A stretch of DNA of 43,938 nucleotides from Bacteroidales bacterium (GTDB lineage Bacteria; Bacteroidota; Bacteroidia; Bacteroidales; ML635J-15). Below are positions 20,709-36,863 of the stretch, piece after piece. The translations under genes were made by a program, and so were the position numbers. Each line of letters starts with the position of its first letter. Within the stretch, counting starts at the first letter, position 1. The stretch lies in the NCBI GenBank assembly GCA_049975305.1, contig JBNGDT010000004.1, forward strand, positions 1 to 43,938, in the 5' to 3' direction. The notes below the pieces were generated by a model. It searched no databases, was not told where the DNA came from, and worked only from the letters and a program-made list of their open reading frames with translations.

Positions 20709-21164
20709 TTATTTACTCAATCCGCCGAACCATTTTACCACTTTCTCACCGATTTCGGGTGCATCAATGTGAATGATGTACATGCCGCCGCCAATGCGTT
20801 TGCCGGATTGATTATTGAGGTCCCATTCCAGCCATGGTATATCATCCGATTTGGTAAAACGCCGTACAAGTGTCCCGGATACATCAAAAATGCTGATGGT
20901 ACAGATTTGTGTCAGGTTGGTGATTTTTACACAGCGTGTTCCGCTGCTTTCATCATAAGAATACCCATTATACGGATTGGGCACCACGCGTATCAGGTCG
21001 AGGGCAGATTCAGCGACGTCACTGTTTTGGGTCATGGTTTGGATGTTGGTTGTGTTGAATACGTATTTACATGGCTTGTCCCGGATGGTATCTTCGGTGG
21101 AAAAATCCCTGTAAAAATAGGGCGTGGCAACCCTGATGCGTATTTTCACATCCGTTTCGAGCAA
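20709..21164 (-). CDS. Orphan C-terminal-domain cassette; diverged copy of the last ~160 aa of 22401..26495 (possibly a silent gene fragment)
   Basis: Shares LETDVKIRIRVATPYF, SALDLIRVVPNPY, QICTISI and GMYIIHIDAP.IGEKVVKWFG (about 60% identity by manual count). TTG start, no signal peptide. Confidence 0.8.
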   Translation of the reverse strand: MLETDVKIRIRVATPYFYRDFSTEDTIRDKPCKYVFNTTNIQTMTQNSDVAESALDLIRVVPNPYNGYSYDESSGTRCVKITNLTQICTISIFDVSGTLVRRFTKSDDIPWLEWDLNNQSGKRIGGGMYIIHIDAPEIGEKVVKWFGGLSK

Positions 21165-21173
21165 TCCAAAAAT

Positions 21174-21206
21174 AAAAAAACCACTCCAGGGAAGAAGCGG
21201 CTTTTT
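21174..21206 (-). terminator. Intrinsic terminator closing the TBDR-cargo-PorV-like operon
   Basis: Minus strand GCCGCUUC / UUCCCU / GGAGUGGU (with G-U pairs) followed by a U-run. Confidence 0.75.
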
Positions 21207-21236: not shown

Positions 21237-22370
21237 TTACAGGCTTATCCTGGCGCCAATGGTGTGTACTCCAGCAAAGGGATTGGTATCACGGTAACTG
21301 TAATCAATGGCAATAACGCTGCCCGAATTATTCATGGGGATATGTACAGAAAGCCCTGCAGAAGGCCCTGTGAAAACAGTGTTTCTTTCGGTATATTCAA
21401 ACATGCCTTTTTCATACACATATCCGCCGCGCAGAAAGAACAGGTTTTTAAATCCATACTCCAGGCCAAAATGAAACTGGTCTCTTGTAAATGAATTGGA
21501 TGTAAAATTGGCAGCGATAATAAGCTGATGGTTACTTATCAGTTCGTCAGCATCTGCGGTTTCTTCACCCATCATGGCATCGGAAGGTGTTTTAGCATCG
21601 AGGTTAATGTAATAGGATGCCCCTATTTTAATTAGGGAAGGAAGTTCAAATTCGGCAGACCTTTGTTCAACTGTCATGTTGGTTCCCCATTGTGATTGGC
21701 CAATAAATGACATGCCATCACCGGTAAATTTCATGGTAGTGCCAACGTTTTTCATGGTAATGCCAAAACGCAGGTTATCCCTCTTACGGTTGCCCAGTTT
21801 ATCTTTACCAATGCCTGTTACGTATTGTATGCCGGCATCCAGGGCAAATCCCATGGCGTTGGCATTGGGCAGGCCTTCATTGATAATTTTTACACTCATT
21901 CCACCATAGATGCTGTTGGAGAATTCCTGTGCATAAGCCAACTGAATGTTGTTGTAACTTACTTTGTAAGTTCCCAAACCACCTTCAGGAAGTTCCTCTG
22001 TGGTGATATCAATATCGCCGAAATTCATGGTCATAACACCCACGCTTAACACTCCAACTTCACCAATTTTCTGGCTAAAGCCAAAATTGTTTATGTTAAT
22101 ACCACTACCAACCAGGTATTGAGAGTTGGTAAAAATCAGTTCTGTTCGGCGGGTAAAAGCGGTTCCGGCAATGTTCTGATAGAGGGCTTCAAGGCCCTGA
22201 ACACTGCCTACATTTGCACTTCCCCAACCGGAACTGCGTGCCCATGGGTTGATTAATAATTCAGAAGCTCCGGCACTACCGGCACGTTGTTCATTTCCTG
22301 CCATCAACGCTGGACTGAGAAGTAAGCATCCCAGTGTGACAATCAGTAATTTTTGCAATCTTTTTTTCAT
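21237..22370 (-). CDS. PorV/PorQ-family (FadL-like) outer-membrane beta-barrel protein
   Basis: Signal peptide, N-terminal 'AGASELLINPWARSSGWG...ALYQNIAG' like the PorV-family 'L.I...AR..GMG...A.YWNPAG', beta-strand pattern, ELPSLIKIG, GLEYGF...FLRGGY. Confidence 0.85.
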   Translation of the reverse strand: MKKRLQKLLIVTLGCLLLSPALMAGNEQRAGSAGASELLINPWARSSGWGSANVGSVQGLEALYQNIAGTAFTRRTELIFTNSQYLVGSGININNFGFSQKIGEVGVLSVGVMTMNFGDIDITTEELPEGGLGTYKVSYNNIQLAYAQEFSNSIYGGMSVKIINEGLPNANAMGFALDAGIQYVTGIGKDKLGNRKRDNLRFGITMKNVGTTMKFTGDGMSFIGQSQWGTNMTVEQRSAEFELPSLIKIGASYYINLDAKTPSDAMMGEETADADELISNHQLIIAANFTSNSFTRDQFHFGLEYGFKNLFFLRGGYVYEKGMFEYTERNTVFTGPSAGLSVHIPMNNSGSVIAIDYSYRDTNPFAGVHTIGARISL

Positions 22371-22400
22371 GACATTATTATTAAATCGTATTCGTAGTTG

Positions 22401-25400
22401 TTAAAAGTTTTGTAAATCAACAGGTCTAAGTGAACCAAACCATTTCACCACTTTTTCACCAATACCAGGGGCATCAATGTGTATGATGTACATGCCGCTG
22501 GAAATAGCAATGTTGTAACCATTTTTTAGATCCCAGTCAATATAGGACGCATCATTTGCTTTATTGAACCTACGTATCAGCCTTCCACTCACATTATAAA
22601 TGCTGATGGTACAGATTTGTGGCAGGTTGGTTATCCGTACACGGTTGTCAAGCTGTGATGTTTCATAGTATGATGTTCCATAATATGGATTTGGAACTAC
22701 CCTGATCAGATCAAGAGCGGATTTTGCTATATCCAGATCTTTTGTAATTGTCTGGATATCAGCAGTGTTGAAGGTGTACATTCCGAAATTATCATTTACA
22801 GGATTATCAAGAGCTATTTGACCCAATCTTTGGAAATAGGGAGTAGCCACCCTGATGCGTATTTTTACATCCGTTTCGAGCAATTCATATCCATGGTTGA
22901 GGTAAGGTAAAGATGTCCACATGGCGCCGCTAAGTGCACACCGTTTGTACATAACGTTTTCATTTTCTTCATATTTCATCATCTTATTGTATATCCATTT
23001 GCATGAATCATAAGCAGGCGTTGAAACTAACGTATCTAGCACATGATTGGTATGGCCAAAAACGTAAATGTAATGTTTGCCGCCAAAGAGTGGGCCATTA
23101 AGATTATAAATGCCTTCTGAGGGATTCCACATCATATCATCACCGTTTTCACCTTTGAGCCATGAATCTTCACCAAAGGCCATGTTTAGGCGCTCGCCTG
23201 TTCTCACATCTATGGCATATCCGGGGAACCAACTCATGCCATGAGTACCTGAGTTATCCGGATTTCCCTCTTTATCTACAGAAGGTGCTTGGCGTAAATC
23301 AAAACGCAGTGCATTGCCCTCTGAGAGATAATTCACAAGCGGGGTAACTTGCACTTCATGGCCATGTTCATTGGTTGTCCATTCGTTTTCACACATTTCA
23401 AGTACCACACATCTTGTCCATTTGGATTTATCGCTTGTAATCACAACATCAACACTGGATAACAGGTCGTATTTGTCAATTTTTATCTGTGATCTGTCAT
23501 AAGTAGGTCCATATTTGAAAGTGGAAGAAAGGTAAATCGGACCCCATGTACCACCAAGAATTTTTTCATAGTACTCATCCGGATCCATGCTCAGGTAGTC
23601 ATCGTAATTTTTATCTGGGTTTACCAATTCTCCATTTTTATAGGTACCTGCCCTGATCCAGTTGTATGGATCCAGATTATCACCATCGGGGATAAAAGAC
23701 AACCATGGTCGTGTCGGATCAGAAAATTCGATACTTGCTTCAAGGAACCCATTCCGGTAGTCGTTTTGATTTTTATAAGCCGCAGGATACACCTGGTAAA
23801 TTGAAACACTTAAACCAAGATCAAGTAACAACTGATCAGTTTGAGTTTTGTTTATCGGATAATCTGAGTGGATGGTGTCATTGGTTGCATTGTTGATCAT
23901 AATCCAGTCAGCTCCGTCTTCTTGTAAACCATAATAATTAGCGGTTGCATTATGAAATTTCAACGTATATGAACCATCGGGCACATTTAATGGATCAATA
24001 ACCTTGATGTTGATAGGGCCTTTCCCATTTTCATAGGTTGGGGTAAAATCTTTCCAGGGGTAACCGCTCATTATGGTTTCAATGGATTCATCTTTCAGAT
24101 CCAATATGTTATTTGCGTTTCCATAACCTTCAATCTGGGTAATTTCTGGTCCATATCCGTATTCTGCCTGTATTACAGTTCCTTCATCAGCAGGTTCTGT
24201 CATGTGTGGCATGGCAAAATATTTTTTAATGTTATTACGACCAGCCAGGTATGGTTTTTTCAAGCCATTGAATGTGGATTGTATTTGCTGGTCATAAGCC
24301 TCAGTTTGGTTATAACCATAAGCAATGGCTGTATAATAGTATGTTTTGTAATTAATTAAGCGTTTATCTCCACTGGCAAAACGGTCTTCAGTGATTACAA
24401 AGCTGTGTTCAATACCTGAATTTGCCCCATTGACCATTTCCAATGGGTTATTGGCGCCCAGTTCATCAGACCAGATAAAATTTACCAGTTGAGACACATC
24501 GTCTTTGATATCACACTGGTAAATTTCACGGACAAGGTCTTTGTTATGGCGGTCAGTGATACTAGCTGATTCATTTTTCAACTGAAATACCTGGTATCCC
24601 TGGAACCTGTAGTACTCATCACAAGGGTCAAGATCACCACCACAAATGATGGATTTGTCTTTTTCTTCGTATTGTTCAAGATAGTTGTTTGAATTTTCTT
24701 TGTTATAGATGTGGAAAATCAGTTTTTTATCCAGTTCCACGATGTTCAACTCCGGGGCATCCGGTCCGTTGAGTACACGGAAACAATTTTCAAACAAGGT
24801 TTGTGCTTTGTCATCGGCTCTTCTGACAGCCTCTACGGATGCCCATGGGCCGCCGGAACTTGCTCTGGCATATACAGCCCCGATAGTGATATCGTTAACA
24901 GCCCCGGGTTGCAGTGTGAACGGGCCTGCAGATTGCACGAACCTTCTGTCATAAGGTGTATTATCCTCGGTTTCTTCAGACCAGTCGGGCATCACAACAC
25001 CACCCTGTCCCCATCCACAAATGTCAGTGGTTGGATTGCCTGGGAACATAAAATCTGTAGGGGTATTTGTTGTTGTGGCACCAGAATGATGACCTGTTCC
25101 TCCATACAACAATGGAGAACCGTCTTTCCAGTAACCTGTCATGTAATTGTAGTAGTCAATGGCATCAATAGGATCAGTCATATTCGGGTTACTACCACCA
25201 CCGGTATTGTTAAAATACAAGAATCTTCTCATGCCCCATCGTTCATTGTCTATGGTTCCATCTTCGAAATTCAATCCATTAATGTTCCCGTTGAGGATAT
25301 CGCCTCTACTACAATTCAATACAGGCAAACCGTTTACAGTATCATAACTGGTAGTATTGTCTTTGCCGTCGGGATCCTGGTAAGGGCCTTCAAAAAAGTC

Positions 25401-26495
25401 AATGCCAATTGCCGGTGGTTGCACACCATACCCGGGGCTGGAACCGTCATCTTCATCCACATTGTCGCCATTGTATAAATACCCCAAACCTCTTCTTACA
25501 TCACATCCGATATAATCATCTTTAGGGCCACCCAGGTCAGCGTCTGTCCATACTCCAAAATAAGTTTCATATAAGGTGTATGTTGATCTGTTTATGATGT
25601 TATAATTATAAAATGTCATGTCATTCAGTTCATCGTTGGTTGCAAAAGCAAAAGCCTGTGCTCTGATTTCCATGCCAATGGCATCGCCTCCGGTTTCTGT
25701 GTGGATATTGCCTTTATCATTGTAAACCCACCATAGAGTAGAGTCACCATAAATTTTGGCATCTCTGTCACGAGGCCTGATACAATTTGGATCGTCGGTA
25801 ATGCCTTCATCGGGATATTCATAATAAGGAAAATCACCGTCGTAAGGGTTGTAATAGCCATCGCCATTGTAGTCCCAAAACGGGGCGAGGTAGTATGCAT
25901 AACCGCCTGCGGGGCCGTGAGCGGGCCAGTTGAGTATTTCTTCCGGGATGGTATAGGTAGGATACTCATCAGCGGTATTACATGCAGGGTCCTGCTGGCA
26001 ATCAAACCATGCTCTGAATTCATCCACCATATTTTTGCTCAATACATAGTGTTTGTCATATTCCTGACAGATATCAAAAGAAACACTACCAATCTCTGAA
26101 CCACTGGCAATCAAAGGTCCTGTCCAGTAATCAATACCGACCTGACGATAACGCACAGCAGCGAGTTTCAATTGTCCGTTTGCATCCAGGCCACCCATCC
26201 ATATTCCCCCACAGAAGAGGGCATTTGGTCCGTTCCCAGATACGGTAGCAGGTACTTCATACCGAGGAGCACCCTGTAAATCCCACCACATATCACCACC
26301 GGTATGTATGAGCGTACGTACATTGTTTACATACAATTCAGTTGATGTTTTACCCTGTTCACAGCCTGCTGCTCTAGTAGCTTTTTCTTTTGACCTTAGT
26401 TTGTCAGCAGGATTGACATCGGCAAAGGTCTGCATTGTTAACAAACTTAAAATACTGATTCCGATTAATAATTTTAATAATTTAAGACTTTTCAT
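22401..26495 (-). CDS. Large (1364 aa) secreted protein with a T9SS-like (FlgD-Ig-type) C-terminal target domain
   Basis: Signal peptide, acidic/aromatic-rich sequence with several Cys, Dx[DN]xDG-type Ca-binding motif (DYNGDGYY), and C-terminal 'LDLIRVVPNPY...TNLP..CTISIY.VSG.LIRR...WDLKN...SGMYIIH'. Confidence 0.88.
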   Translation of the reverse strand: MKSLKLLKLLIGISILSLLTMQTFADVNPADKLRSKEKATRAAGCEQGKTSTELYVNNVRTLIHTGGDMWWDLQGAPRYEVPATVSGNGPNALFCGGIWMGGLDANGQLKLAAVRYRQVGIDYWTGPLIASGSEIGSVSFDICQEYDKHYVLSKNMVDEFRAWFDCQQDPACNTADEYPTYTIPEEILNWPAHGPAGGYAYYLAPFWDYNGDGYYNPYDGDFPYYEYPDEGITDDPNCIRPRDRDAKIYGDSTLWWVYNDKGNIHTETGGDAIGMEIRAQAFAFATNDELNDMTFYNYNIINRSTYTLYETYFGVWTDADLGGPKDDYIGCDVRRGLGYLYNGDNVDEDDGSSPGYGVQPPAIGIDFFEGPYQDPDGKDNTTSYDTVNGLPVLNCSRGDILNGNINGLNFEDGTIDNERWGMRRFLYFNNTGGGSNPNMTDPIDAIDYYNYMTGYWKDGSPLLYGGTGHHSGATTTNTPTDFMFPGNPTTDICGWGQGGVVMPDWSEETEDNTPYDRRFVQSAGPFTLQPGAVNDITIGAVYARASSGGPWASVEAVRRADDKAQTLFENCFRVLNGPDAPELNIVELDKKLIFHIYNKENSNNYLEQYEEKDKSIICGGDLDPCDEYYRFQGYQVFQLKNESASITDRHNKDLVREIYQCDIKDDVSQLVNFIWSDELGANNPLEMVNGANSGIEHSFVITEDRFASGDKRLINYKTYYYTAIAYGYNQTEAYDQQIQSTFNGLKKPYLAGRNNIKKYFAMPHMTEPADEGTVIQAEYGYGPEITQIEGYGNANNILDLKDESIETIMSGYPWKDFTPTYENGKGPINIKVIDPLNVPDGSYTLKFHNATANYYGLQEDGADWIMINNATNDTIHSDYPINKTQTDQLLLDLGLSVSIYQVYPAAYKNQNDYRNGFLEASIEFSDPTRPWLSFIPDGDNLDPYNWIRAGTYKNGELVNPDKNYDDYLSMDPDEYYEKILGGTWGPIYLSSTFKYGPTYDRSQIKIDKYDLLSSVDVVITSDKSKWTRCVVLEMCENEWTTNEHGHEVQVTPLVNYLSEGNALRFDLRQAPSVDKEGNPDNSGTHGMSWFPGYAIDVRTGERLNMAFGEDSWLKGENGDDMMWNPSEGIYNLNGPLFGGKHYIYVFGHTNHVLDTLVSTPAYDSCKWIYNKMMKYEENENVMYKRCALSGAMWTSLPYLNHGYELLETDVKIRIRVATPYFQRLGQIALDNPVNDNFGMYTFNTADIQTITKDLDIAKSALDLIRVVPNPYYGTSYYETSQLDNRVRITNLPQICTISIYNVSGRLIRRFNKANDASYIDWDLKNGYNIAISSGMYIIHIDAPGIGEKVVKWFGSLRPVDLQNF

Positions 26496-26530
26496 TTTTA
26501 TGATCGCTTTATTAATGTTTTACAAATTAC

Positions 26531-29500
26531 TTAAAAACTAAATTGAACACCCAAACGAATGGTTCTTGGGGTGCTGTAATTATAAGGACTATTGATGTAC
26601 ATTGTATAATAATTCCGGTATGCCTCTTCATCCGTTTGTGAGGCAATGGCATCCTGGAAAGCTGCATAAGTTAAGAAACCATTATCATCAGGATTGCCGG
26701 TATATCCGTAAACGTTAAGGACATTTTTGGCATTCATAAGGTTGGATATTTCCAAATATACATTCAGGAATGCGAATTTTTCTTTTGTGCCAGCGTCATT
26801 GTCTTTTTCTTTGAGTGTTAACCTGATATCACGGTCAAGGCGCATGTTAATTGTTGTACGCCATGGTTTACGAGAACCATTCAGTGAGCCGATAAGTTTT
26901 CCATTACTTGGCCTGTTGAGCTTAGAATAGGGGCTACCGGAACCAGCGTTTACCACAAAGTTTACTCCGGTGTTAGCAAAGAAATCAGTATTAAACCATT
27001 TTGGGCCTTTGTAAGGTGTGCCATTGGCTTTCCCACCATAACGATAATCCATGGAAACAGCAAAATTATGTCTCTGGTCAAAATTCAACGGGATGGTGGT
27101 TCTCAGGTTGGGCTGATTTGATTTGATGATATCCAGGCCTGATTCATAAGAAGAACCTGTACCATTGGCAAATTGTAATGTATAAGAAGCTCTCAGTGAA
27201 ACATTGCCTGTTCTTCTCAAATCGTATGCAGCAGTAAAACCTTTTACTGTACCAAAGTCAATGTTCCCGTAGGTATAATAATTTACCGGATAAGCTCCAT
27301 TGACAGCAATGGTTTGTTGCATATCACGCATTTCACGGTAGTAAGCTGATAATTTCAATGAAGATGTGTTCCCCAATTTTTGTTGATAACCGACTTCGTA
27401 ATCTATTGTTTTTTCAGTGATCTGATTGGGATTATTGATTGGTTCCTGGTTGACCTGTCTAATATATAAATACTGAATTGGATTTAACCTGGCATTGTAA
27501 GATGGCCGTTTTGATAAAATATCATAATGTGCAAAGAAAAGTGCTTCGTCAGAAATGGGGAATGAGAAGGCAACACGTGGCATCACTGTCATCTGTGGTT
27601 CATAATCCACAAATGCATTGGTATTCAGTTCATCATTTTCAAGCAAATAAGGTGTAATACCTGTAGGGCCAGCTATTGCATTTGGATTTTCAGTTTCAGT
27701 ACCATCGCTGGTGTACCATGTATCACCGTCACGGAAACCGGTTATACGTGATGGATTTTCGGCATCATTCACATACACCACAGCCCCATTGTTGATATTT
27801 CCGGGTATTTTAGATTCTGCGAGTAAGCCTGCAGGGTCAGATTCACCAACACGGTAAGCATCACTGAACATATATTGATCTTTTAATACGCGTTGGTTAG
27901 CATCAAAGCGGTCCACCCTGATACCAATATTAAAAATAAGGTCTTGAAATGAAAATTTATCTTGGATATAGCCGGCTATGTAGTTTGGCTGGAAAGAAGG
28001 AATGGGGCGTGTCAGGTTTCCGAATTCATCGGTTTTTGTAAAGAAATCTTCAAAACTGGGATCGTAATCGAGTTTTTTTCCTGTATGATCATATCCGTAA
28101 TAAGATACATAAGTGTTCCCCTGGTTGAACAGTTCGCTTGCTGAAAAATAAGAAATATCAAATTCATCAGGGTCATAAGAATCTACATCTATCCACTCAA
28201 GGCCGTCAACTGGTTTACCAAGGTGTTCACGGAATTTCAAGTCAAAAAGGGCCTGTTGGGATGCGTTAAAAAGCCTGGGGTAATTGATAGTATCCTGGAA
28301 AACACCATTGGCGTCATACACAGGATTGGGATTGGAAAGGTCACGTTCCATAATGTGTTTGTTCATCAAGTCTTCAGCAAGTCCCCAAAGGCCAAAAGGA
28401 GCCAGTGCAAAATAATTGTCGTTTCGTTGTTCAAATTCAAAGCCAAGTGTGATCTCATGATCTTTTATGTCTGCCACACCATTAGCAGAAACGCGTATTT
28501 GGTTGTTATTAGTTTTCGTATAAGAAGTGTAAGGCATGCCAGGTGCTGTATAAAGGCCTGCAATGCTTGCAGGGCCCGAACCATTCAACAATCCACCATT
28601 TTGAATAACTGTATTCCTGTCAATGTAGTATAGATCTTTTACTATGTCAAAAAACTGTTCAGAATAGGTTGAAAGTTCGGGATTCTTGGTTCCCGGTGTA
28701 AAAGAATCAATTCTGTAAAAGTACGTTTCATGAATCCATCCTTCGAGGTTGCTGGCGGTATCTATACCCCACTGATAGAATTTTTCGGGAATTGTTTCAT
28801 ATTTTCCAATGTAGCCGTAATCGAAGAAATTATCTTTGTGATCCGCGTCCTGCGTGGTACTGGATGTTTTTGAGTAATCAACTTGGATGGAATAATACGC
28901 ATTTTTGATCAGGCGTTGTTCGGGTTCTTCTCCTACTTCCGGCGGTGGTGCCTGGAATTTTTGAGTTAACCTTCCATATACCCGCCAGTTATTGTAAATT
29001 TGCTGGCCGTTGTTTTCTGAATTGAACAAGGAATAGGAATAACTATACAGACGTTGATTTCTGTAGTCCATGGTTCCGCCAAACGTCAGGTTCAGATTTT
29101 TGATGGGTTGAAAATCCAGTTTTCCGGCGAGGTTTAATTTCATTCTTTCAGCGTTGGGGCGTGTATCCACATTTTTAAACGCATCTTTTCTCAAAAAGTC
29201 AGCGTTCTGATAAACAATTGGAAGACCTGCTTCTGTTGGAATGACACGAAGTGGATCGTTGGCTATTTGATCCCTGGTATCATCTTTAGCTACCCATGTC
29301 CCGATGGCGGATGGGTACTCGTCTTTTATATATTTCAGTTCACTTGAGATAAGGAACCCTGCTACTGTGCGTTGTCTGTCAGTTCCGGCTTCTTTTGTGC
29401 GGTAAATTGGGCCGGACAACATCAATCCGTTGAGGTTATAACCATACGGGTCAAGGAATTGAGATGTTACCACTTCAGCGCCGCCGAAGAATTTACTTGT

Positions 29501-30175
29501 TGGTCCTTTAGTTGTAACATCAATGATACCACCGGTAGCGTCACCATATTTGGCGGCAATACCACCTGTTACAACTGATATTTGTTCGATGGCGGATTTA
29601 GGTACAGCGTTTGTACCGCGTACTTTTACACCATCAACATAATAAACGGTAGCTTCAGAACGAGCACCACGGATGCTGCCAACTTCACCATCTTCTGAAT
29701 ATACACCACCAACGGTTGTTGCCACAGCATCGGCTGAACGGCCAGGCATTTTGGCAATATCTTCGGATGTAACTGTTCCCCCTGACTGGGTTTGGTCTTT
29801 CTTAATCAGCGGAACTATATATTCTTTTACTTCTACTTCATCGAGAATTTCAACGGATGCTTTCAGTGCAAAATTCTGAAAGGCAATTTTACCGGCCTCG
29901 ATTTGCACATTATTATACTGTAATGAAGCGTATCCAACGTATGAAGCTTTTACGGTATATTTGCCTGCCGGTATGGGTTTTATCTGGTATTGACCGTCAA
30001 AATCCGTCATACCTCCGGTCAATGTGTTTCCATTTTCTTCGATACTCACATTGGCAAAGGGTATCGGTTCTCCGGTTTCTGCATCAAGGACTTTCCCTTT
30101 TAGTGTTCCGGATTGTGCGAAAGCACCTGTGCTGATTACAAGTGCTGTTAAACCAATAATTAATCTCCGTAGCAT
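26531..30175 (-). CDS. TonB-dependent-receptor-like protein with an N-terminal carboxypeptidase-regulatory-like domain
   Basis: Signal peptide AFA-Q, GKVLDAETGEPIPFANV, plug (IRGARSEATVYYVDGV...GGIAAKYGDATGGII), barrel motifs (YIQDK, GIRVDRFD, PRVAFSFPI), terminal PRTIRLGVQFSF. Confidence 0.92.
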   Translation of the reverse strand: MLRRLIIGLTALVISTGAFAQSGTLKGKVLDAETGEPIPFANVSIEENGNTLTGGMTDFDGQYQIKPIPAGKYTVKASYVGYASLQYNNVQIEAGKIAFQNFALKASVEILDEVEVKEYIVPLIKKDQTQSGGTVTSEDIAKMPGRSADAVATTVGGVYSEDGEVGSIRGARSEATVYYVDGVKVRGTNAVPKSAIEQISVVTGGIAAKYGDATGGIIDVTTKGPTSKFFGGAEVVTSQFLDPYGYNLNGLMLSGPIYRTKEAGTDRQRTVAGFLISSELKYIKDEYPSAIGTWVAKDDTRDQIANDPLRVIPTEAGLPIVYQNADFLRKDAFKNVDTRPNAERMKLNLAGKLDFQPIKNLNLTFGGTMDYRNQRLYSYSYSLFNSENNGQQIYNNWRVYGRLTQKFQAPPPEVGEEPEQRLIKNAYYSIQVDYSKTSSTTQDADHKDNFFDYGYIGKYETIPEKFYQWGIDTASNLEGWIHETYFYRIDSFTPGTKNPELSTYSEQFFDIVKDLYYIDRNTVIQNGGLLNGSGPASIAGLYTAPGMPYTSYTKTNNNQIRVSANGVADIKDHEITLGFEFEQRNDNYFALAPFGLWGLAEDLMNKHIMERDLSNPNPVYDANGVFQDTINYPRLFNASQQALFDLKFREHLGKPVDGLEWIDVDSYDPDEFDISYFSASELFNQGNTYVSYYGYDHTGKKLDYDPSFEDFFTKTDEFGNLTRPIPSFQPNYIAGYIQDKFSFQDLIFNIGIRVDRFDANQRVLKDQYMFSDAYRVGESDPAGLLAESKIPGNINNGAVVYVNDAENPSRITGFRDGDTWYTSDGTETENPNAIAGPTGITPYLLENDELNTNAFVDYEPQMTVMPRVAFSFPISDEALFFAHYDILSKRPSYNARLNPIQYLYIRQVNQEPINNPNQITEKTIDYEVGYQQKLGNTSSLKLSAYYREMRDMQQTIAVNGAYPVNYYTYGNIDFGTVKGFTAAYDLRRTGNVSLRASYTLQFANGTGSSYESGLDIIKSNQPNLRTTIPLNFDQRHNFAVSMDYRYGGKANGTPYKGPKWFNTDFFANTGVNFVVNAGSGSPYSKLNRPSNGKLIGSLNGSRKPWRTTINMRLDRDIRLTLKEKDNDAGTKEKFAFLNVYLEISNLMNAKNVLNVYGYTGNPDDNGFLTYAAFQDAIASQTDEEAYRNYYTMYINSPYNYSTPRTIRLGVQFSF

Positions 30176-30310: not shown

Positions 30311-30796
30311 TTATAAATATTTTGTGTTTAAAATTTCTGAGAAAATTACAGCTTTTTTAATATCAAATCTGTTGGCAATTTTTGCAGTCTCAGATTTTGG
30401 CTGTGCTCTCAAATCCTTATTAATCTCTTGATTTAAAGCTGCTTTTGCTTTCCCGGCGTCAATATCGTCATTTTCCACGTTTTGAACGGATGCTTTGTAT
30501 TTCGTCAGATTTTGTTCATTAATTTGATTAAAAGCCCTCTTTATGTCATTTTTTTTGTTTTCAATTTCTGCATCAGAATATGTGTATGCATACTTATTTT
30601 TTGATGCAGGTTGATCATGAGTGTTGGTGTCCAAATCATTTTCTGATTCATCAGCGTTGAAAAAGCCATGGGCACTGCCAGCAGGTTGGGATGTTGTTTT
30701 TGATTTTTGATTTTTCTTTTCGAGCGCACTCAACAAAGGAACTCCGAAAGCAAAAGCAATGATCAACAATAAATTAAGAATATCTCCTGTTTCCAT
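30311..30796 (-). CDS. Hypothetical membrane-anchored protein
   Basis: N-terminal TM helix, low-complexity middle, C-terminal 'KKAVIFSEILNTKY' motif of a small Bacteroidota family. Confidence 0.75.
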   Translation of the reverse strand: METGDILNLLLIIAFAFGVPLLSALEKKNQKSKTTSQPAGSAHGFFNADESENDLDTNTHDQPASKNKYAYTYSDAEIENKKNDIKRAFNQINEQNLTKYKASVQNVENDDIDAGKAKAALNQEINKDLRAQPKSETAKIANRFDIKKAVIFSEILNTKYL

Positions 30797-30840: not shown

Positions 30841-31188
30841 TTATTTCCGGCTTGAATTTTTCCGGGCTTCACGTTCCGATTTTTTCATACGCTTGTACAC
30901 TTTTTTCCCGTTAACAAGCTCTTTACTGCTGCCGGGCACTTCTTTTTTGTATTTTTTTAAATTACGTTTATGTTGGCGTTCGCGTTGTTTTGCCTGTTTT
31001 GTCTGTTTTCTTTCTGCTTTTCTTACAGCTCTCTCTTCTAAACGCTCCTGGCGGGTGCTGTGATGCTTGCGTTTTTTCATTTTTTGATCAATAGAATACC
31101 TGTTTTGTGCATTGACACAATTTAAATCTGGTGAGATGGACGGAAACACCCACGTGATAAAAAGGCCTATTATCAAAAACTTTTTCAT
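30841..31188 (-). CDS. Hypothetical exported Lys/Arg-rich protein
   Basis: MKKFLIIG signal-like start at 31188, processing site VNA-Q, strongly basic mature part. Confidence 0.65.
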   Translation of the reverse strand: MKKFLIIGLFITWVFPSISPDLNCVNAQNRYSIDQKMKKRKHHSTRQERLEERAVRKAERKQTKQAKQRERQHKRNLKKYKKEVPGSSKELVNGKKVYKRMKKSEREARKNSSRK

Positions 31189-31233
31189 AAATTTGTATCC
31201 AACAAAGTAAATAAATGTTATTGCGGGACAAAT

Positions 31234-31668
31234 ATGCATATTTTAAAAACAAAAATAGTAAAAATTTTCATTTTAACAATATTAATGGTATGTAGTTTTT
31301 CAGCATGTCAGGATGACGATTACATTCCCGAGGTGATGTTTAATTATTACATTGATTTGAATTCTGTACAATACAACAGCCTGAAAATTCCCGGAAATGC
31401 AGAATATATGAATGTGGCAGGATACAGGGGAGTTATTGTGCACTGTAATTATACTGATGAGTACGTGGCTTTTGAAAGAGCCTGCCCCTATCATCCGGAA
31501 GCAGACGATGCAGTGGTGGAAATTGAAGACAATAGCATAGCAACTTGTCCTGAATGTGGATCACAGTTTTCTTTATTTGACGGTTCGGTGATAAAAGGGC
31601 CTGCTGAGTTACCATTGAAAAGGTATTATACTGACTTGCAGGGGAGTCATTTATATGTTTATAATTGA
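31234..31668 (+). CDS. Rieske-like domain lipoprotein
   Basis: Lipobox FSA-C followed by acidic QDDD; AFERACPYH...ATCPECGSQFSLFDGSVIKGPA..PL..Y. Confidence 0.85.
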   Translation: MHILKTKIVKIFILTILMVCSFSACQDDDYIPEVMFNYYIDLNSVQYNSLKIPGNAEYMNVAGYRGVIVHCNYTDEYVAFERACPYHPEADDAVVEIEDNSIATCPECGSQFSLFDGSVIKGPAELPLKRYYTDLQGSHLYVYN

Positions 31669-32048: not shown

Positions 32049-33053
32049 CTATTTAAACAATGACCTTACATTGCCTGCAATCAGTTCATTTTTAGCATCA
32101 CGAAGATTTTCGATGGGTTTAATCTTATCAAATTGCGCCTGTACTTGTTCGCGGTTAGGCATTGTTAAACGCATCTTGTTGTTGTTTTGATTGTCAACAT
32201 AATAAATATAGGTAACATTGCCTGCCGGGAATGCGGGTGACAACTCAGGTATGTCGCGCTCCTGCATTGGTGTAGTGATATAATTGTCTTTTTTTGCAGG
32301 AATTATTGCTGCAGTCAGCCGGGGCAAATGTTCTGTTTTTATTTCAGATGTTCTCTGTTCATAGTTCTGTGCTGCATTTGTATTTCTAATGGCAACCGGT
32401 AGGTTAGGGGGTGCAACTTGAGCTGTTTGCATGGATGCATTAGCATTTATCTGTGAGATATTGGTTTCCGGGTGTGTGTATTTTTCTGCATCAACCATAA
32501 TCAAGTTGCCTTGTGCAAGAGGCTGAGAATTGAAAGGGTGGTTTGTTTGAAGCAGACTTAACCGAAGCATGCCAACAACCAGCAACCCTGTTATCACAGC
32601 AGCAGCGGCAACATATTGCATTTGTTTCATGGAAATTAGCGGGGCTTTCTTTTTCAGGGCTGATTTACGAGGGTAAGTGATGTTTTTGTCCGGATTAAGT
32701 TTTGATTTAAGGTATAATTCATAATCATCAATGGCCGATGGATCTGAAGAAAGCAGATTTTCTGCATGTTGTTTTTCATCTTCAATCAAATCATTTTCAG
32801 CCAGGCCGATGAGCAGTTTTTCCCGTTGATTGAATTCCGGCATTTCTTCATCACGTTTCAATGTATTTTTATGGTTAAAATTCAATTGAGCATCCGGATT
32901 CAATGTTAAACCAGATAGATCAAAAATATCAGCATCCAATTGAGGATTATCAATTAAAAAGGACTCAAGTGCTTTTGTATCTTCTGCACCCAGTGTTCCC
33001 TCCATGAAATCCAACAGGTATGCTTCGTAGTTATGTTTGTTTATTTTTGACAT
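32049..33053 (-). CDS. Putative anti-sigma factor
   Basis: Directly downstream of an ECF sigma. N-terminal 'INKHNYEAYLLDFMEGTL', a second similar helical unit, then a TM helix 'YVAAAAVITGLLVVG'. Confidence 0.8.
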   Translation of the reverse strand: MSKINKHNYEAYLLDFMEGTLGAEDTKALESFLIDNPQLDADIFDLSGLTLNPDAQLNFNHKNTLKRDEEMPEFNQREKLLIGLAENDLIEDEKQHAENLLSSDPSAIDDYELYLKSKLNPDKNITYPRKSALKKKAPLISMKQMQYVAAAAVITGLLVVGMLRLSLLQTNHPFNSQPLAQGNLIMVDAEKYTHPETNISQINANASMQTAQVAPPNLPVAIRNTNAAQNYEQRTSEIKTEHLPRLTAAIIPAKKDNYITTPMQERDIPELSPAFPAGNVTYIYYVDNQNNNKMRLTMPNREQVQAQFDKIKPIENLRDAKNELIAGNVRSLFK

Positions 33054-33062
33054 GTTACCTTA

Positions 33063-33551
33063 TTATATAATAGCTTCAATGCTACCGATTTTTTCTTTCA
33101 TTGCTGATCTTGCCCTGTAAATATAGACTTTCACCTGTGATTCTGTCAATCCTGTGATTTCTGCAATCTCTTTGTATGAATAAGATTCATAATCGCGGAG
33201 TAACAATACCGAACGTTGTGTTTCATTTAAATCATTAAGCACACTATTTAACACTTCGCTCAAATCGCTATAATGATCATCATGATAAGATGATGATACA
33301 TCATGTATTTCATCCAAATGTTGAGCATATTTGTTCTTTCTTTTCATGTCAATCATACGATTATGTGCTGTCGTAAACAAATAGGAGCGAACTTTTTTTG
33401 CATCAACTTTTTCATGATTTATCCACAATCGTTCATAGGTGTCCTGCACAATATCACGTGACAATTCTTCATCTTTCAGATTGCTCAGGATAAACCTGTA
33501 CACGTTGTCAGCGTACTCTTCCACACTATCGTTATACTCCTTTGTTGTCAT
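33063..33551 (-). CDS. RNA polymerase ECF-type sigma-70 factor
   Basis: DIVQDTYERLW, SYLFTTAHN, QRSVLLLRDYESYSYKEIAEITG..ESQVKVYIYRAR. Confidence 0.95.
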   Translation of the reverse strand: MTTKEYNDSVEEYADNVYRFILSNLKDEELSRDIVQDTYERLWINHEKVDAKKVRSYLFTTAHNRMIDMKRKNKYAQHLDEIHDVSSSYHDDHYSDLSEVLNSVLNDLNETQRSVLLLRDYESYSYKEIAEITGLTESQVKVYIYRARSAMKEKIGSIEAII

Positions 33552-33646: not shown

Positions 33647-34393
33647 ATGAAAAAACGAGGATTTAATTCAGAGGAGCAGTCAGGTGTTCGACTGAATAAA
33701 TATTTATCCAATGCAGGTGTATGTTCGCGTCGTGAGGCAGATAAACATATAGCCGAAGGTCATGTAAAAGTAAACGGTAATGTAGTAAAAAACCTCGGGG
33801 TAAAGATTCCTCAACATGCAAAAGTGGAATTTAAGGGGCAGGTTATTCACGGCGAAAAAAATGTTTATATCCTGCTCAACAAGCCCAAAGATGTGGTTAC
33901 TACCATGAATGACCCCGACGGCAGACATACCGTATATGATATTATTAAGGATTCTGTTAGCGAACGGGTATATCCTGTTGGCAGGTTGGACAGGAACACC
34001 ACAGGGCTTTTGCTTTTGACCAATGATGGTGACCTAACACAACGCCTGTTGCATCCTAAATACAACAAAAAGAAAATATATCATGTTGGCCTTGACAAGC
34101 CTGTTGACCCTAAGGACATGGACATTATCAACAAAGGAATTGAGCTTGAAGACGGTTTTATTAAAGCAGATGACCTGGCTTATGTGGATGACACAAAAAT
34201 GGAAGTAGGTATTGAAATCCATTCGGGCAAAAACCGCATCGTACACCGGATTTTTGAACATCTGGGTTATAAAGTAAAAAAACTTGACCGTGTGTATTTT
34301 GCCGGGCTGACAAAAAAAAACCTGCCGCGTGGAAAATACAGGTATTTGAAGCCAAATGAAATCAACATGCTGAAGAGTGGAAAATTCAAATAA
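33647..34393 (+). CDS. rRNA pseudouridine synthase, RsuA/RluB/RluF family, with S4 domain
   Basis: RLNKYLSNAGVCSRREAD, LLNKPK, catalytic YPVGRLDRNTTGLLLLTNDG. Confidence 0.95.
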   Translation: MKKRGFNSEEQSGVRLNKYLSNAGVCSRREADKHIAEGHVKVNGNVVKNLGVKIPQHAKVEFKGQVIHGEKNVYILLNKPKDVVTTMNDPDGRHTVYDIIKDSVSERVYPVGRLDRNTTGLLLLTNDGDLTQRLLHPKYNKKKIYHVGLDKPVDPKDMDIINKGIELEDGFIKADDLAYVDDTKMEVGIEIHSGKNRIVHRIFEHLGYKVKKLDRVYFAGLTKKNLPRGKYRYLKPNEINMLKSGKFK

Positions 34394-36863
34394 ATTTTGG
34401 TTAGGGATTACGATTACATTGTGTTTGCTAGTTCCTGTGTTTACTATTGCACAGGAAACATTGCGGGGACGCATTACAGATGCAGAAACCGGAAAGCCGT
34501 TAACTTTTGTTAATGTGGTATATAATGATGCCAGGCAAGGAACCACAACAGACCTTGATGGTTATTTTAGCATACCCCTCACTCACTCGCCGGATTTTCT
34601 GAAATGCAGTTTTATAGGGTATAAAGAAAAAATGGTGGATGTACCTGAAAATAAAAACTATATTGAAATATCCCTTGAGCCAAAAGCATATACGTTGAAT
34701 GAAGTAACAGTATTGCCGGGCATAAATCCGGCGCATCGGATTATCGGGGGCGCCATTGGTATGCGGGACAAACATGCCCCTCACAACCTGGATTCATATA
34801 CATATACTTCCTACAGTAAATTTTACATCACCATAGAGGTTGACAGTTTGCGTCAACTTGCAGACACAGATACCACAACCGAATTATCCGACACTTCCAC
34901 ACTGGCAAAGACCATTAAATTTCTCAATGAGAAACACTTGTTTATGATGGAATCGGTGACAGAAAAAAAGTTTGAATATCCTGACAAATCTTCAGAAAAA
35001 GTGCTTGCCAGCCGCATGTCCGGATTAAAAAAGCCATTTTTTACCTACATGGCTTCCGAATTTCAATCCTTTTCGTTTTATCGCCAAAGCATTGATGTGG
35101 GAGGCCAGGAATTTATCTCTCCCTTATGCGATAATTGTACAAATAAGTATTTTTTTCTGCTCCAGGACAGCCTTTTTCATGAATCCGGGGATACCAGCTT
35201 TGTGATTTCTTTTCGTCCTCATCGGAACACCAATTTCAAAGGACTAAAAGGGTTTATCACCATTACTTCAGATGGCTGGGCAATAGAAAATGTTATGGCA
35301 GAACCCATGGAAACAGGGGGGATATTTAGTATAAAGATACAGCAGAAATATGAAAAAATAAACGGGAAATACTGGTTCCCCATTCAACTTAACACGGATT
35401 TTATTTTCAATTTAGACCAGGCCAATGCCAACAGTGTTTCCATAAGTAATGATACAACAAGGAGCAATACAATACCCATGATTGGTGTTGGGAAAACCTA
35501 CATCCGTGATATTAATATTAACACACCAATTGATGAAAAAATACTTGGAGGCACGAAAATCGAGTATGAAAAAGAAGCTGCAGAACGGAACACATCGTGG
35601 TGGAATGAATACAGGCAATCTCCTTTGAACTCCAAAGAAAAAGAAACTTACAGGCTAATAGATTCACTGGGGGAAGAACACAATTTTGACCACCTGGTGG
35701 AAAGCATAGAAATCATTGCCACGGGTGCCATTCCCTGGAAAATATTCAACATCCGGCTCAACGAACTGATGTGGTACAACGAATTTGAAGGATACAGGCT
35801 GGGGCTTGGACTGGAAACCAACAGTAGGATGAGTGAATATTTCAGGCTATACGGTTTTGGGGCTTACGGTTTTCGTGATAAAACATTAAAATACAGCGGT
35901 GGTGTGGCTTTATATCCCCTGAAAAACAATCAGCTCATTGTTGATGTGGAGTACATCTATGATGTAATGGCTTCCAATCAGATTTTTTATGAAAGCCGTT
36001 TGTTTAGCACAGAGAGTTTCCGAACCTTGTTTCTCAAAGAAATGGATTATTATAAAACCTGGCGTGCATCGCTTAAGGCACAGCCATTCAGGGGCTTCTA
36101 TGCCAATGCCTACCTTGACCACAACCAGATTGATGTGACAAACAATTACCGGTTTTTTCACAATGAATTTATTAATGATATCAGGGAATGGCAGGCAGGT
36201 CTTGAGTTGCACTGGGTGATAAAAGAAAACATTCTGCGCACCCCTGAAGGCAATGTCATCGGGCTTGGTAGCAAATACCCGGAGATGTATGTCAATATTC
36301 GCAAAGGCCTGCCCTATAAATCTGCATCAGAGCCTGATTACTGGCGTTTTGATGGGCGCATAAACCAGACATTTAAAACGCGGTGGGCCGGCGATTTTCA
36401 TTTTACCATAGATGGTGGCTATGTGCTGGGTGATGGTGATAATTACCTTCAGAATTTTTATATGCCCGGCACCGGGGTCTGGCTTGATGCTGATAAGAGT
36501 TTTGCTACCATGCGCCCGCATGATTTTATTGCAGACCGGTTTGCGGCAGCCTATTTTAAATACGATATTGGCAGCCTTTTGTTCAGCATAAAAAAGTGGA
36601 AACCTGAATTTGCTTTTGTTACCAGGGCTTGTATCGGGGAATATGATTATCAATTTCCTCAACCCTTCCCGTACAACACAGGATACAAGCCTGCATCAGC
36701 ACCTTCTGACGGGTACATTGAATCGGGATTGCAATTCAATGCGTTGTTGCGTCAGTCTTTCTTTAAGTATGGATCAGGCGTTTATTACCATTATGGCCCC
36801 GTAAGTTCGGATATTTTCAAAGAAAACCTGGCGGTAAAATTCAGGCTGGAATATGCGTTTTAG
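34377..36863 (+). CDS. Carboxypeptidase-regulatory-like domain + DUF5686-type outer-membrane protein
   Basis: Signal peptide TIA-Q, GRITDAETGKPL.FVNV...GTTTDLDGYF, NPAHRII, FISPL....Y.F, YNEFEGYRLG, terminal Phe. Confidence 0.85.
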   Translation: MENSNKFWLGITITLCLLVPVFTIAQETLRGRITDAETGKPLTFVNVVYNDARQGTTTDLDGYFSIPLTHSPDFLKCSFIGYKEKMVDVPENKNYIEISLEPKAYTLNEVTVLPGINPAHRIIGGAIGMRDKHAPHNLDSYTYTSYSKFYITIEVDSLRQLADTDTTTELSDTSTLAKTIKFLNEKHLFMMESVTEKKFEYPDKSSEKVLASRMSGLKKPFFTYMASEFQSFSFYRQSIDVGGQEFISPLCDNCTNKYFFLLQDSLFHESGDTSFVISFRPHRNTNFKGLKGFITITSDGWAIENVMAEPMETGGIFSIKIQQKYEKINGKYWFPIQLNTDFIFNLDQANANSVSISNDTTRSNTIPMIGVGKTYIRDININTPIDEKILGGTKIEYEKEAAERNTSWWNEYRQSPLNSKEKETYRLIDSLGEEHNFDHLVESIEIIATGAIPWKIFNIRLNELMWYNEFEGYRLGLGLETNSRMSEYFRLYGFGAYGFRDKTLKYSGGVALYPLKNNQLIVDVEYIYDVMASNQIFYESRLFSTESFRTLFLKEMDYYKTWRASLKAQPFRGFYANAYLDHNQIDVTNNYRFFHNEFINDIREWQAGLELHWVIKENILRTPEGNVIGLGSKYPEMYVNIRKGLPYKSASEPDYWRFDGRINQTFKTRWAGDFHFTIDGGYVLGDGDNYLQNFYMPGTGVWLDADKSFATMRPHDFIADRFAAAYFKYDIGSLLFSIKKWKPEFAFVTRACIGEYDYQFPQPFPYNTGYKPASAPSDGYIESGLQFNALLRQSFFKYGSGVYYHYGPVSSDIFKENLAVKFRLEYAF

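Follow-up and report, generated by a model that had tools for sequence, protein, structure and literature searches.

Conserved three-gene locus for a TonB-dependent-receptor-like protein, a type IX-secreted protein and a PorV-family barrel in Bacteroidota

Organization of the locus

The window analyzed here is a stretch of 43,938 nucleotides from a Bacteroidales bacterium (assembly GCA_049975305.1, contig JBNGDT010000004.1). On its minus strand, genes for a TonB-dependent-receptor (TBDR)-like outer-membrane protein of 1214 aa, a large secreted protein of 1364 aa (hereafter the cargo) and a PorV-like outer-membrane barrel of 377 aa follow each other, with intergenic gaps of 35 and 30 nt in the list of open reading frames (ORFs). 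This trio had been noticed before, in a sequence-only reading of the window, as a tight operon with a single terminator. It was suggested to form either a surface complex, in which a protein delivered by a T9SS (type IX secretion system) acts as lid or capture unit of the TonB-dependent barrel and is held by a private PorV paralogue, or a minimal export and display pathway of its own. The features of the trio are as follows:

26531..30175, minus strand: TBDR-like outer-membrane protein, 1214 aa (ORF, translation, Pfam, orthologue profile)
29804..29839, minus strand: TonB-box-like motif E113-I124, EVEVxEYxVPLI (alignment of the window protein and 29 orthologues)
22401..26495, minus strand: cargo, 1364-aa secreted protein with signal peptide, body and T9SS type-A C-terminal domain (CTD) (Pfam/NCBIfam)
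24774..26363, minus strand: cargo residues 45-574, galactose-mutarotase-like beta-supersandwich with large insertions (AlphaFold2 (AF2) and VIA-align)
24186..24764, minus strand: cargo residues 578-770, FN3-like beta-sandwich with an insertion (AF2 and VIA-align)
22767..24185, minus strand: cargo residues 771-1243, mostly beta, confidently predicted, without a match (AF2, Foldseek, VIA-align)
22404..22712, minus strand: cargo CTD, residues 1262-1364, PNPYY ... KWFG plus the extension LRPxDLxxF (TIGR04183, alignment of 46 CTDs)
21237..22370, minus strand: PorV/PorQ-family outer-membrane barrel, 377 aa (NF033709, orthologue profile, quick maximum-likelihood tree)
21175..21206, minus strand: terminator-like hairpin with a T run, 30 nt past the stop codon of the PorV-like gene (terminator scan, relatives)

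The short gaps confirmed the tight operon; among listed sequencing runs, none contains the locus, and there was accordingly no RNA dataset for it. The terminator scan as a whole stayed at chance level, with 9 sites found and 10.6 expected; the hairpin at 21206-21175 is kept 3' of the orthologous PorV-like gene in two same-genus relatives, which agrees with the single terminator assigned to the operon. As had been claimed, no SusD-type lipoprotein or enzyme genes accompany the trio: SusD-like, enzyme or hybrid sensor genes were not found among the neighbours scanned, and the locus was therefore rejected as a polysaccharide utilization locus (PUL).

Conservation of the three genes as a unit

The cargo query matched 30 of 41 genomes of relatives, including 23 of the 24 other genomes of the same family and 6 of 16 from other families of the order. 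In all 12 regions fetched from order relatives the TBDR, cargo and PorV-like genes lie in this order on one strand, with greA downstream in each of them and a gene of the HIT family in 11.

A scan of one genome per species, performed with a 16-sequence cargo alignment, resulted in at least 782 stretches, at least 781 of which were confirmed. From these, 71 loci were kept, which according to their record titles belong to the Bacteroidales, Lentimicrobiaceae and Flavobacteriales (e.g., Crocinitomicaceae, Cryomorphaceae, Fluviicola); Fluviicola taffensis DSM 16823 is named in one title. The cargo gene is followed by the PorV-like gene in 42 of the 71 loci and a TBDR gene is located upstream in 41 of these 42; the sequence of the remaining one starts 252 nt before the cargo. 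Eight loci contain the TBDR and then the cargo gene, inside which the sequence ends, and one consists of a second-copy cargo fragment followed by greA and HIT. The other 20 loci hold a cargo homologue without a TBDR or PorV-like neighbour and look like extra paralogues. A PorV-like orthologue was found elsewhere in all five lone-cargo genomes tested, and the four regions fetched all contain TBDR, cargo, PorV-like, greA and HIT genes. Since the tested genomes hold the full trio elsewhere, the lone cargo loci were rejected as evidence against co-conservation.

Cargo relatives from other classes are shorter (∼1100-1260 aa) and 30-35% identical. The three genes are nevertheless found in the same order in 8/8 of the other-class loci, here without greA or HIT.

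For the phylum as a whole, 401 genomes were drawn evenly and searched with thresholds of E ≤ 1e-20 for the cargo, E ≤ 1e-40 for the TBDR and E ≤ 1e-25 for the PorV-like barrel. Within the class, the matches to the three proteins coincide, being found in the same 16 genomes and the window genome. By coordinates, the TBDR gene ends just before the cargo gene in 16/16 and the PorV-like gene starts just after it in 15/16, the sixteenth being split over contigs. At the thresholds used, no trio matches were found in several large SprA-bearing families, e.g., f24 (0/28) and f31 (0/12). SprA was identified in 312 of the 401 genomes; cargo relatives are present in 86 of these 312 and in none of the 89 SprA-negative genomes, 87 of which belong to one family. 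All 86 genomes with cargo relatives are thus SprA-positive, which is the outcome of the phyletic profile against sprA that had been proposed, at the low power that this sampling gives.

Taken over the order, other orders, other classes and the phylum sample, the shared gene order and single phyletic pattern establish the co-conservation of the three genes. In the sequence-only reading, similar trios had been said to occur in other genomes of the FCB group, and this was confirmed for Bacteroidota as the phylum is defined in GTDB.

Additional copies of the cargo gene

In same-genus relatives, one or two full-length extra cargo genes are located downstream of the barrel gene. A relic of such a copy is present in the window:

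20709..21164, minus strand: relic of a second, tandem cargo paralogue, last 151 codons, 61% identical to cargo residues 1205-1356

The relic starts directly past the operon hairpin, at the place where a full-length second copy is found in the same-genus relatives, and the relative-like sequence of the window stops just past the hairpin, at the relic start. Because the relatives hold one or two intact extra copies there, the window genome appears to have lost ∼3.6 kb. The layout of cargo, barrel and again cargo was also observed in one more distant genome of the class. Both the extra and the lone copies retain the conserved CTD, and therefore one barrel may serve several cargo paralogues.

These copies bear on how closely the three proteins are coupled. 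The cargo could be an extracellular enzyme or adhesin on a private PorV-type shuttle or anchor, while the TBDR imports a product or an unrelated nutrient and has no contact with the cargo, and the genes would then share a regulon and their products no complex. Such an arrangement is favoured by the extra cargo paralogues, which come without an extra TBDR or barrel, so that a stoichiometric pairing with the TBDR would not be required, and by components that appear to be co-transcribed and are co-conserved. The identical phyletic pattern and the fixed order of TBDR, cargo and barrel across classes argue against it, as does the cargo itself, in which Pfam and NCBIfam recognized no catalytic family. 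We regard a shared regulon as quite unlikely and prefer a surface module in which the three proteins work together.

Two further observations concern cargo sequences. On contig C68 of the window genome (L114:563-2386, minus strand), a 607-aa T9SS protein is encoded that consists of the supersandwich, matching cargo residues 54-540, and a type-A CTD of its own; its neighbours are recB-like, LysM and mutS genes, and many relatives have short paralogues of this kind. In genome G008, ∼870 extra bases separate the second cargo copy from the PorV-like gene (L031:5940-7020). They contain a masked (N) run and repeat the 3' end of the barrel gene, and may represent an insertion or an assembly artefact.

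The PorV-like barrel and the T9SS of the window genome

The PorV-like barrel passes the model of the PorV family (NF033709, 134.4 bits vs. a cut-off of 90) and fails the equivalog cut-offs for PorV (NF033710, 57.3 vs. 250 bits), PorQ (NF033711, 58.2 vs. 220) and PorV2 (NF052325, 61.2 vs. 325). Searched alone against solved structures, the protein gave no match. A profile of 46 trio barrels matched the PorV chain 6h3i_F with an E-value of 8.8e-14, the same sequence being present in seven further PDB entries, and weaker matches were obtained to the FadL-type channels TbuX and TodX. For another FadL-like protein, BamG, a PorV-like function is considered unlikely by the authors in the passages that deal with it (PMC12578637).

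The genome assembly (2.64 Mb, 325 contigs, 95% complete) encodes a full T9SS, with SprA at 2714 bits, PorU at 1173 and GldM at 330. PorQ was identified on contig C273 (381.7 bits) and the canonical PorV on contig C230, directly behind the tail of porU. The canonical porV gene reads in two overlapping frames, which score 235 and 216 bits to NF033710 and reflect a frameshift or an assembly error. On contig C14 a PorU2/PorV2 pair is encoded (L115:1120-6168, L005:1456-2586; 751 bits to NF052324 and 450 bits to NF052325), which is a putative second T9SS sorting module of this genome, and a fifth, short member of the PorV family is located on contig C172. As PorV, PorQ and PorV2 are encoded elsewhere, the PorV-like gene of the trio was rejected as the canonical porV and is an additional paralogue. 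A sole, canonical porV at this place would have spoken against the suggestions of the sequence-only reading; separate genes were found for all three.

Five further genomes hold 5, 5, 6, 14 and 16 members of the PorV family; 29 of 30 loci carried an NCBIfam label, and the one without an ORF match was dropped. A quick maximum-likelihood tree was built from 47 family members, namely those 29, four from the window genome and 14 further trio barrels. In this tree the 18 trio barrels form one side of a branch with a Shimodaira-Hasegawa-like approximate likelihood ratio test (SH-aLRT) value of 99, apart from PorV (6 rows), PorQ (4) and PorV2 (4).

In the three other-class genomes, the gene directly 5' of 7 of the 13 unnamed PorV-family paralogues ends in a CTD-like tail. 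All seven match the PorZ model weakly, at its CTD end, and three of them also pass TIGR04183. A CTD-protein gene followed by the gene of a PorV-family barrel thus seems to be a recurrent arrangement, and the pairing of CTD proteins with PorV-type barrels may be a general design. The other-class genomes (G081, G173, G137; L130-L153) hold 14-16 PorV-family barrels, and one of the unnamed ones is preceded by a TonB-dependent receptor.

The cargo CTD and its predicted docking on the barrel

The CTD of the cargo had been called non-canonical. It passes the type-A model TIGR04183 of NCBIfam (24.9 bits vs. 23) and stays below the cut-off of Pfam PF18962 (18.1 vs. 27), and is better described as a divergent type-A domain. 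It has a conserved C-terminal extension of ∼10 residues (LRPxDLxxF). The PNPYY and KWFG motifs are kept across the 46 aligned CTDs. In 76 full-length relatives, the mean identity to the window cargo is 0.62 for the CTD (residues 1262-1356), 0.51 for the body and 0.36 for the linker that precedes the CTD, and the last 14 residues are likewise conserved (0.64). If the CTD were a signal to be cleaved and discarded, one would not expect it to be better conserved than the body.

The mature PorV-like barrel was modelled together with cargo residues 1240-1364 in three runs, with alignments of 46 rows for each partner. The ipSAE was 0.88, compared with 0.01 for the best control. The mark applied to this score is reached by 116 of 157 solved complexes and by 2 of 215 mismatched pairs, counts which are only rough for user alignments. 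The runs agree in at least 92% of the contacts and the partner pLDDT is at least 78. Docking of the CTD on the barrel, an interface that had been proposed for modelling in the sequence-only reading, is therefore predicted with clean controls. The predicted interface takes in the conserved terminal extension of the CTD. Interface positions of the barrel are more conserved than the rest (0.62 vs. 0.52), a difference reached in 144 of 10000 random draws, and those of the CTD show 0.65 vs. 0.56, which was reached in 837 of 10000 draws.

The cargo body

The N-terminus of the cargo is hydrophobic, is kept in orthologues and was read by eye as a Sec signal peptide. Of the whole protein, only the CTD is recognized by Pfam and NCBIfam and the body belongs to no family of these collections. 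Of 7999 candidates scored, at least 6176 protein clusters are cargo relatives at E ≤ 1e-10; the 120 listed all bear only the names "hypothetical" or "T9SS type A sorting domain-containing", and a precomputed Pfam domain is given for none of them. When the cargo sequence was compared with those of solved structures, no useful match was obtained (best E-value 0.19).

An AF2 model of residues 44-1243, calculated with 68 sequences, reached a mean predicted local distance difference test value (pLDDT) of 89.2 and a predicted template modelling score (pTM) of 0.68. With VIA-align, residues 45-574 could be aligned to the sandwich domains with which dextran dextrinase and members of GH94, GH15 and GH65 start, with Z-scores from 18.6 to ∼15. 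The alignment covers ∼250 of the 530 residues at a root mean square deviation (rmsd) of ∼3 Å, which indicates large insertions in the supersandwich. By conservation per block, this domain is the best-conserved part of the cargo body. Since the supersandwich fold occurs in the sugar-binding N-domains of glycoside hydrolases and phosphorylases, a carbohydrate may by analogy be the ligand of the cargo.

A separate model of residues 578-1243 was predicted with a pLDDT of 92 and a pTM of 0.88. Its first ∼190 residues contain an FN3-like domain (Z ∼10, rmsd 2-3 Å, ∼95 residues aligned by VIA-align). The Foldseek comparison that had been suggested for the cargo was informative in part: against the PDB, the 1200-residue model gave weak matches only (best E-value 5.4e-4, TM ∼0.2) and the C-terminal half gave nothing at E ≤ 0.001. 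The VIA-align rows for the model of the C-terminal half reach only its residues 1-193. A Pfam scan of the C-terminal halves of 68 orthologues gave no credible match, with a single borderline one (E 0.0097) in one of them, and in the ESM Atlas no usable match was found for residues 770-1243 and only unnamed clusters for the whole cargo, with a lead of 0.92 to a cluster that is labelled Fidelibacterota. The ∼470 residues from 771 to 1243 may possibly adopt a fold that is absent from solved structures; the region is barely tested and its unmatched status is no proof of this.

The TonB-dependent protein

The TBDR starts with a signal peptide, followed by a carboxypeptidase-regulatory-like (NTE) domain at residues 24-116 (CarbopepD_reg_2 in Pfam, 68.5 bits) and a plug at residues 125-217 (Pfam Plug, 38.8 bits vs. 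a cut-off of 23.9), which is the best-conserved part of the protein in the alignment of orthologues. The strand EVEVxEYxVPLI sits between the NTE domain and the plug and is conserved in the window protein and 29 orthologues; over 44 sequences, P122 is invariant and Y119, L123 and I124 are nearly so. It may function as TonB box, and we take it to be comparable to the TonB boxes of SusC-type proteins. A profile of 44 TBDR orthologues matched the plugs of PirA, Cir and FepA (best E-value 1.6e-15) and the NTE domains of the SusC structures 6ytc and 9hfj; no barrel match was obtained with it among PDB sequences. The barrel part is long and divergent and ends in a C-terminal F residue. Pfam TonB_dep_Rec_b-barrel was matched with 24.3 bits, below the cut-off of 27, and the barrel matches in NCBIfam are weak. 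No SusC/RagA signature family was listed for this protein in NCBIfam at E ≤ 0.01.

A TBDR barrel of such unusual length and divergence would be in line with the second suggestion of the sequence-only reading, a self-contained export and display system in which the TBDR-like barrel is the exit channel of the cargo and the PorV-like barrel a private, SprA-independent shuttle. A precedent for a TonB-dependent transporter in protein secretion is given by Oar, which in the account concerned is required for the secretion of PopC in Myxococcus xanthus (PMC6434023). Like Oar, the trio has a TonB-dependent barrel tied to a secreted protein. Unlike in that case, the cargo has a T9SS signal and a PorV-type partner, and no Oar-type family is found among the Pfam matches of the TBDR. 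A plugged barrel of 22 strands would be too narrow for a folded protein of 150 kDa. Moreover, the TBDR has kept its plug, the type-A tail of the cargo passes the NCBIfam cut-off, SprA is encoded in 86/86 genomes with cargo relatives, and, according to the complex model, the CTD binds to a PorV-type barrel in the manner of T9SS cargo. An export route of its own is very improbable for the trio, and we favour delivery of the cargo by the T9SS of the genome.

Comparison with known systems

The closest parallels, PorQ-PorZ and PorV-PorU, belong to the T9SS attachment complex. In the sections of PMC10202324 that treat them, the CTDs of PorU and PorZ are retained and stay bound to PorV and PorQ, and cognate PorV-like barrels are proposed as protectors of the CTD. 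The trio shares with these pairs a PorV/PorQ-family barrel and a protein with a type-A CTD, a barrel gene that follows the gene of the CTD protein, and a docking model that supports their association. It differs in that its barrel is placed in a clade of its own and below the equivalog cut-offs and that a TonB-dependent barrel belongs to the unit. Outside the tail, the cargo is unrelated to PorZ and PorU, and the retention of its CTD is a prediction.

With SusC/SusD (RagA/RagB), the trio has in common a TBDR with NTE domain, TonB-box-like motif and plug, a TBDR gene beside that of a large surface protein, and a partner of a carbohydrate-binding-type fold. In contrast to SusC/SusD, it has no SusC/RagA signature, and neither SusD nor another lipoprotein is its partner; genes for glycoside hydrolases or hybrid sensors were not found among the neighbours scanned. 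The partner is instead a T9SS protein with its own barrel, and there is one locus per genome examined, which is conserved and not diversified.

PorP/SprF-like barrels are encoded beside type-B CTD cargo that they may anchor, e.g., SprB-SprF, as described in the parts of PMC10202324 and PMC9143113 devoted to them. A dedicated outer-membrane barrel gene beside a T9SS cargo gene is found here as well, but TIGR04183 marks the CTD of the trio cargo as type A, and its barrel is a member of the PorV/PorQ family and not of PorP/SprF. PorU2/PorV2, annotated as "putative type IX sorting system", represents a second PorV-family paralogue with a CTD-bearing partner in the same genome. The trio barrel scores 61 against the PorV2 cut-off of 325, its partner is not PorU-like, and a TBDR is included.

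The trio therefore falls outside PorV, PorQ, PorV2 and SusC/SusD, and would work like a blend of the T9SS anchor pairs and SusC/SusD. Its parts come from known families, at least at their ends. In agreement with the earlier statement that such trios lack a functional description, no published description of the combination was found in full-text searches of the literature (supplementary files were outside the scope).

Proposed function of the trio

Our preferred reading, to which we give an even chance, is a surface capture-and-import module, in which a T9SS-delivered protein sits with its uncleaved CTD on a dedicated barrel and works with a TonB transporter. The 1364-aa cargo would pass through the inner membrane via Sec and then be exported across the outer membrane by the T9SS of the genome, for which its type-A CTD would be the signal. 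The CTD would then be neither cut off nor linked to lipopolysaccharide (LPS) but retained on the cargo, and is predicted from the complex model to dock non-covalently on the PorV-family barrel encoded by the adjacent gene, similar to PorZ with PorQ and PorU with PorV. The cargo displayed in this way would consist of the supersandwich, an FN3-like spacer and the large conserved beta region. It may capture, and perhaps process, a polymeric substrate, most likely a glycan, and would hand it over for import to the co-encoded TonB-dependent transporter, with which it presumably makes contact at the barrel. The module would then be a functional analogue of SusC/SusD with a T9SS-anchored protein in the place of the lipoprotein. 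A wider version of this reading, an ancient, phylum-wide machine that couples the T9SS to TonB transport, with a stable complex of TBDR, cargo and barrel, a co-evolving uncleaved CTD and a fourth kind of PorV-type barrel, is more tentative and seems to us rather more doubtful than credible.

Several points weigh against the capture-and-import reading. The locus has features that are closer to housekeeping envelope functions than to substrate-specific uptake loci: greA and HIT accompany the trio in 36 of 42 loci and serA is located upstream in 3 of the 8 other-class loci, the cargo is 40-50% identical between orders, just one trio locus was seen per genome whose loci were examined, and genes for degradative enzymes were not found near the trio among the neighbours scanned. 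Co-conservation indicates a shared function and not a lid mechanism, and the association of cargo and SprA is weak evidence, because the SprA-negative genomes come almost entirely from one family. The complex model may have passed owing to likeness to solved PorV structures, as the barrel profile matches the PorV sequence in eight PDB entries (6h3i and the seven others). What it describes is a PorV-CTD-like pair, and it implies neither a preference over the canonical PorV nor retention of the CTD. The supersandwich fold gives nothing firm on the ligand, ∼470 residues of the cargo are without a match, and the barrel part of the TBDR remains below the Pfam cut-off and has no sequence match in the PDB.

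The housekeeping-like features of the locus could be accounted for by a housekeeping module of the envelope or an accessory part of the T9SS. The cargo and the PorV-like barrel would then be a pair like PorZ and PorQ that binds an envelope glycan (LPS or a surface polysaccharide), and the TBDR-like barrel would be a structural or transport partner in the assembly of the surface coat or in outer-membrane maintenance. The stable synteny with greA and serA, the single locus per genome, the high conservation across orders and classes and the lack of catabolic genes nearby all speak for this explanation. PorZ/PorQ is moreover the closest known anchor pair, as far as the relevant part of PMC10202324 goes, the PorZ model is matched at its CTD end by the seven CTD-like tails encoded 5' of unnamed paralogues of the PorV family, and the PorU2/PorV2 pair shows that accessory sorting modules are present in this genome. 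On the other hand, 226 of the 312 SprA-positive genomes have no cargo match with the queries used, so that the trio is not a core part of the T9SS, the cargo has no sequence match to PorZ outside the tail, and the TBDR retains a plug and a TonB-box-like motif, which are typical of importers. A housekeeping role is fairly unlikely in our view, and the capture-and-import module is kept as the preferred reading.

If this module exists, SusD-type lipoproteins would not be the only kind of surface partner of TonB-dependent transporters in Bacteroidota but would be joined by a second one, and the rule that a cognate PorV-like barrel keeps the CTD would extend past the attachment complex. For environmental, rumen and digester Bacteroidota, which show no classical PUL logic at the locus, the trio is a concrete target that is conserved and can be tested, and co-varying pairs of CTD and barrel would be useful for studying how T9SS cargo is sorted and whether its CTD is cleaved or retained.

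Neighbouring genes

A regulator had been said to be lacking at the locus. The claim stood for the module and not for its surroundings: ∼2 kb upstream of the trio an extracytoplasmic function (ECF) sigma factor is encoded (33063-33551, minus strand), which is near the PG0214/GFO_1088 type of NF058625 (119 bits vs. a cut-off of 130), and beside it an anti-sigma-like membrane protein of 334 aa (32049-33053, minus strand). When loci were compared, the upstream position of this pair recurred only in one same-genus relative, and the pair was for this reason rejected as part of the module. Small basic ORFs of low complexity (30841-31239 and 30311-30796) lie between the sigma pair and the trio and recur upstream within the family.

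Two more outer-membrane proteins with carboxypeptidase-regulatory-like N-termini are encoded in the window (12809-15325 and 34377-36863, both on the plus strand); one of them has a plug and OMP_b-brl_3 (331 bits) and the other is a DUF5686 protein (162 bits). In loci from other classes, the gene 3' of the PorV-like gene codes either for a ∼725-aa protein that contains many TPR repeats and weakly matches multihaem cytochrome c (L117, L118 and L121) or for a GWxTD-domain protein (L119 and L122).

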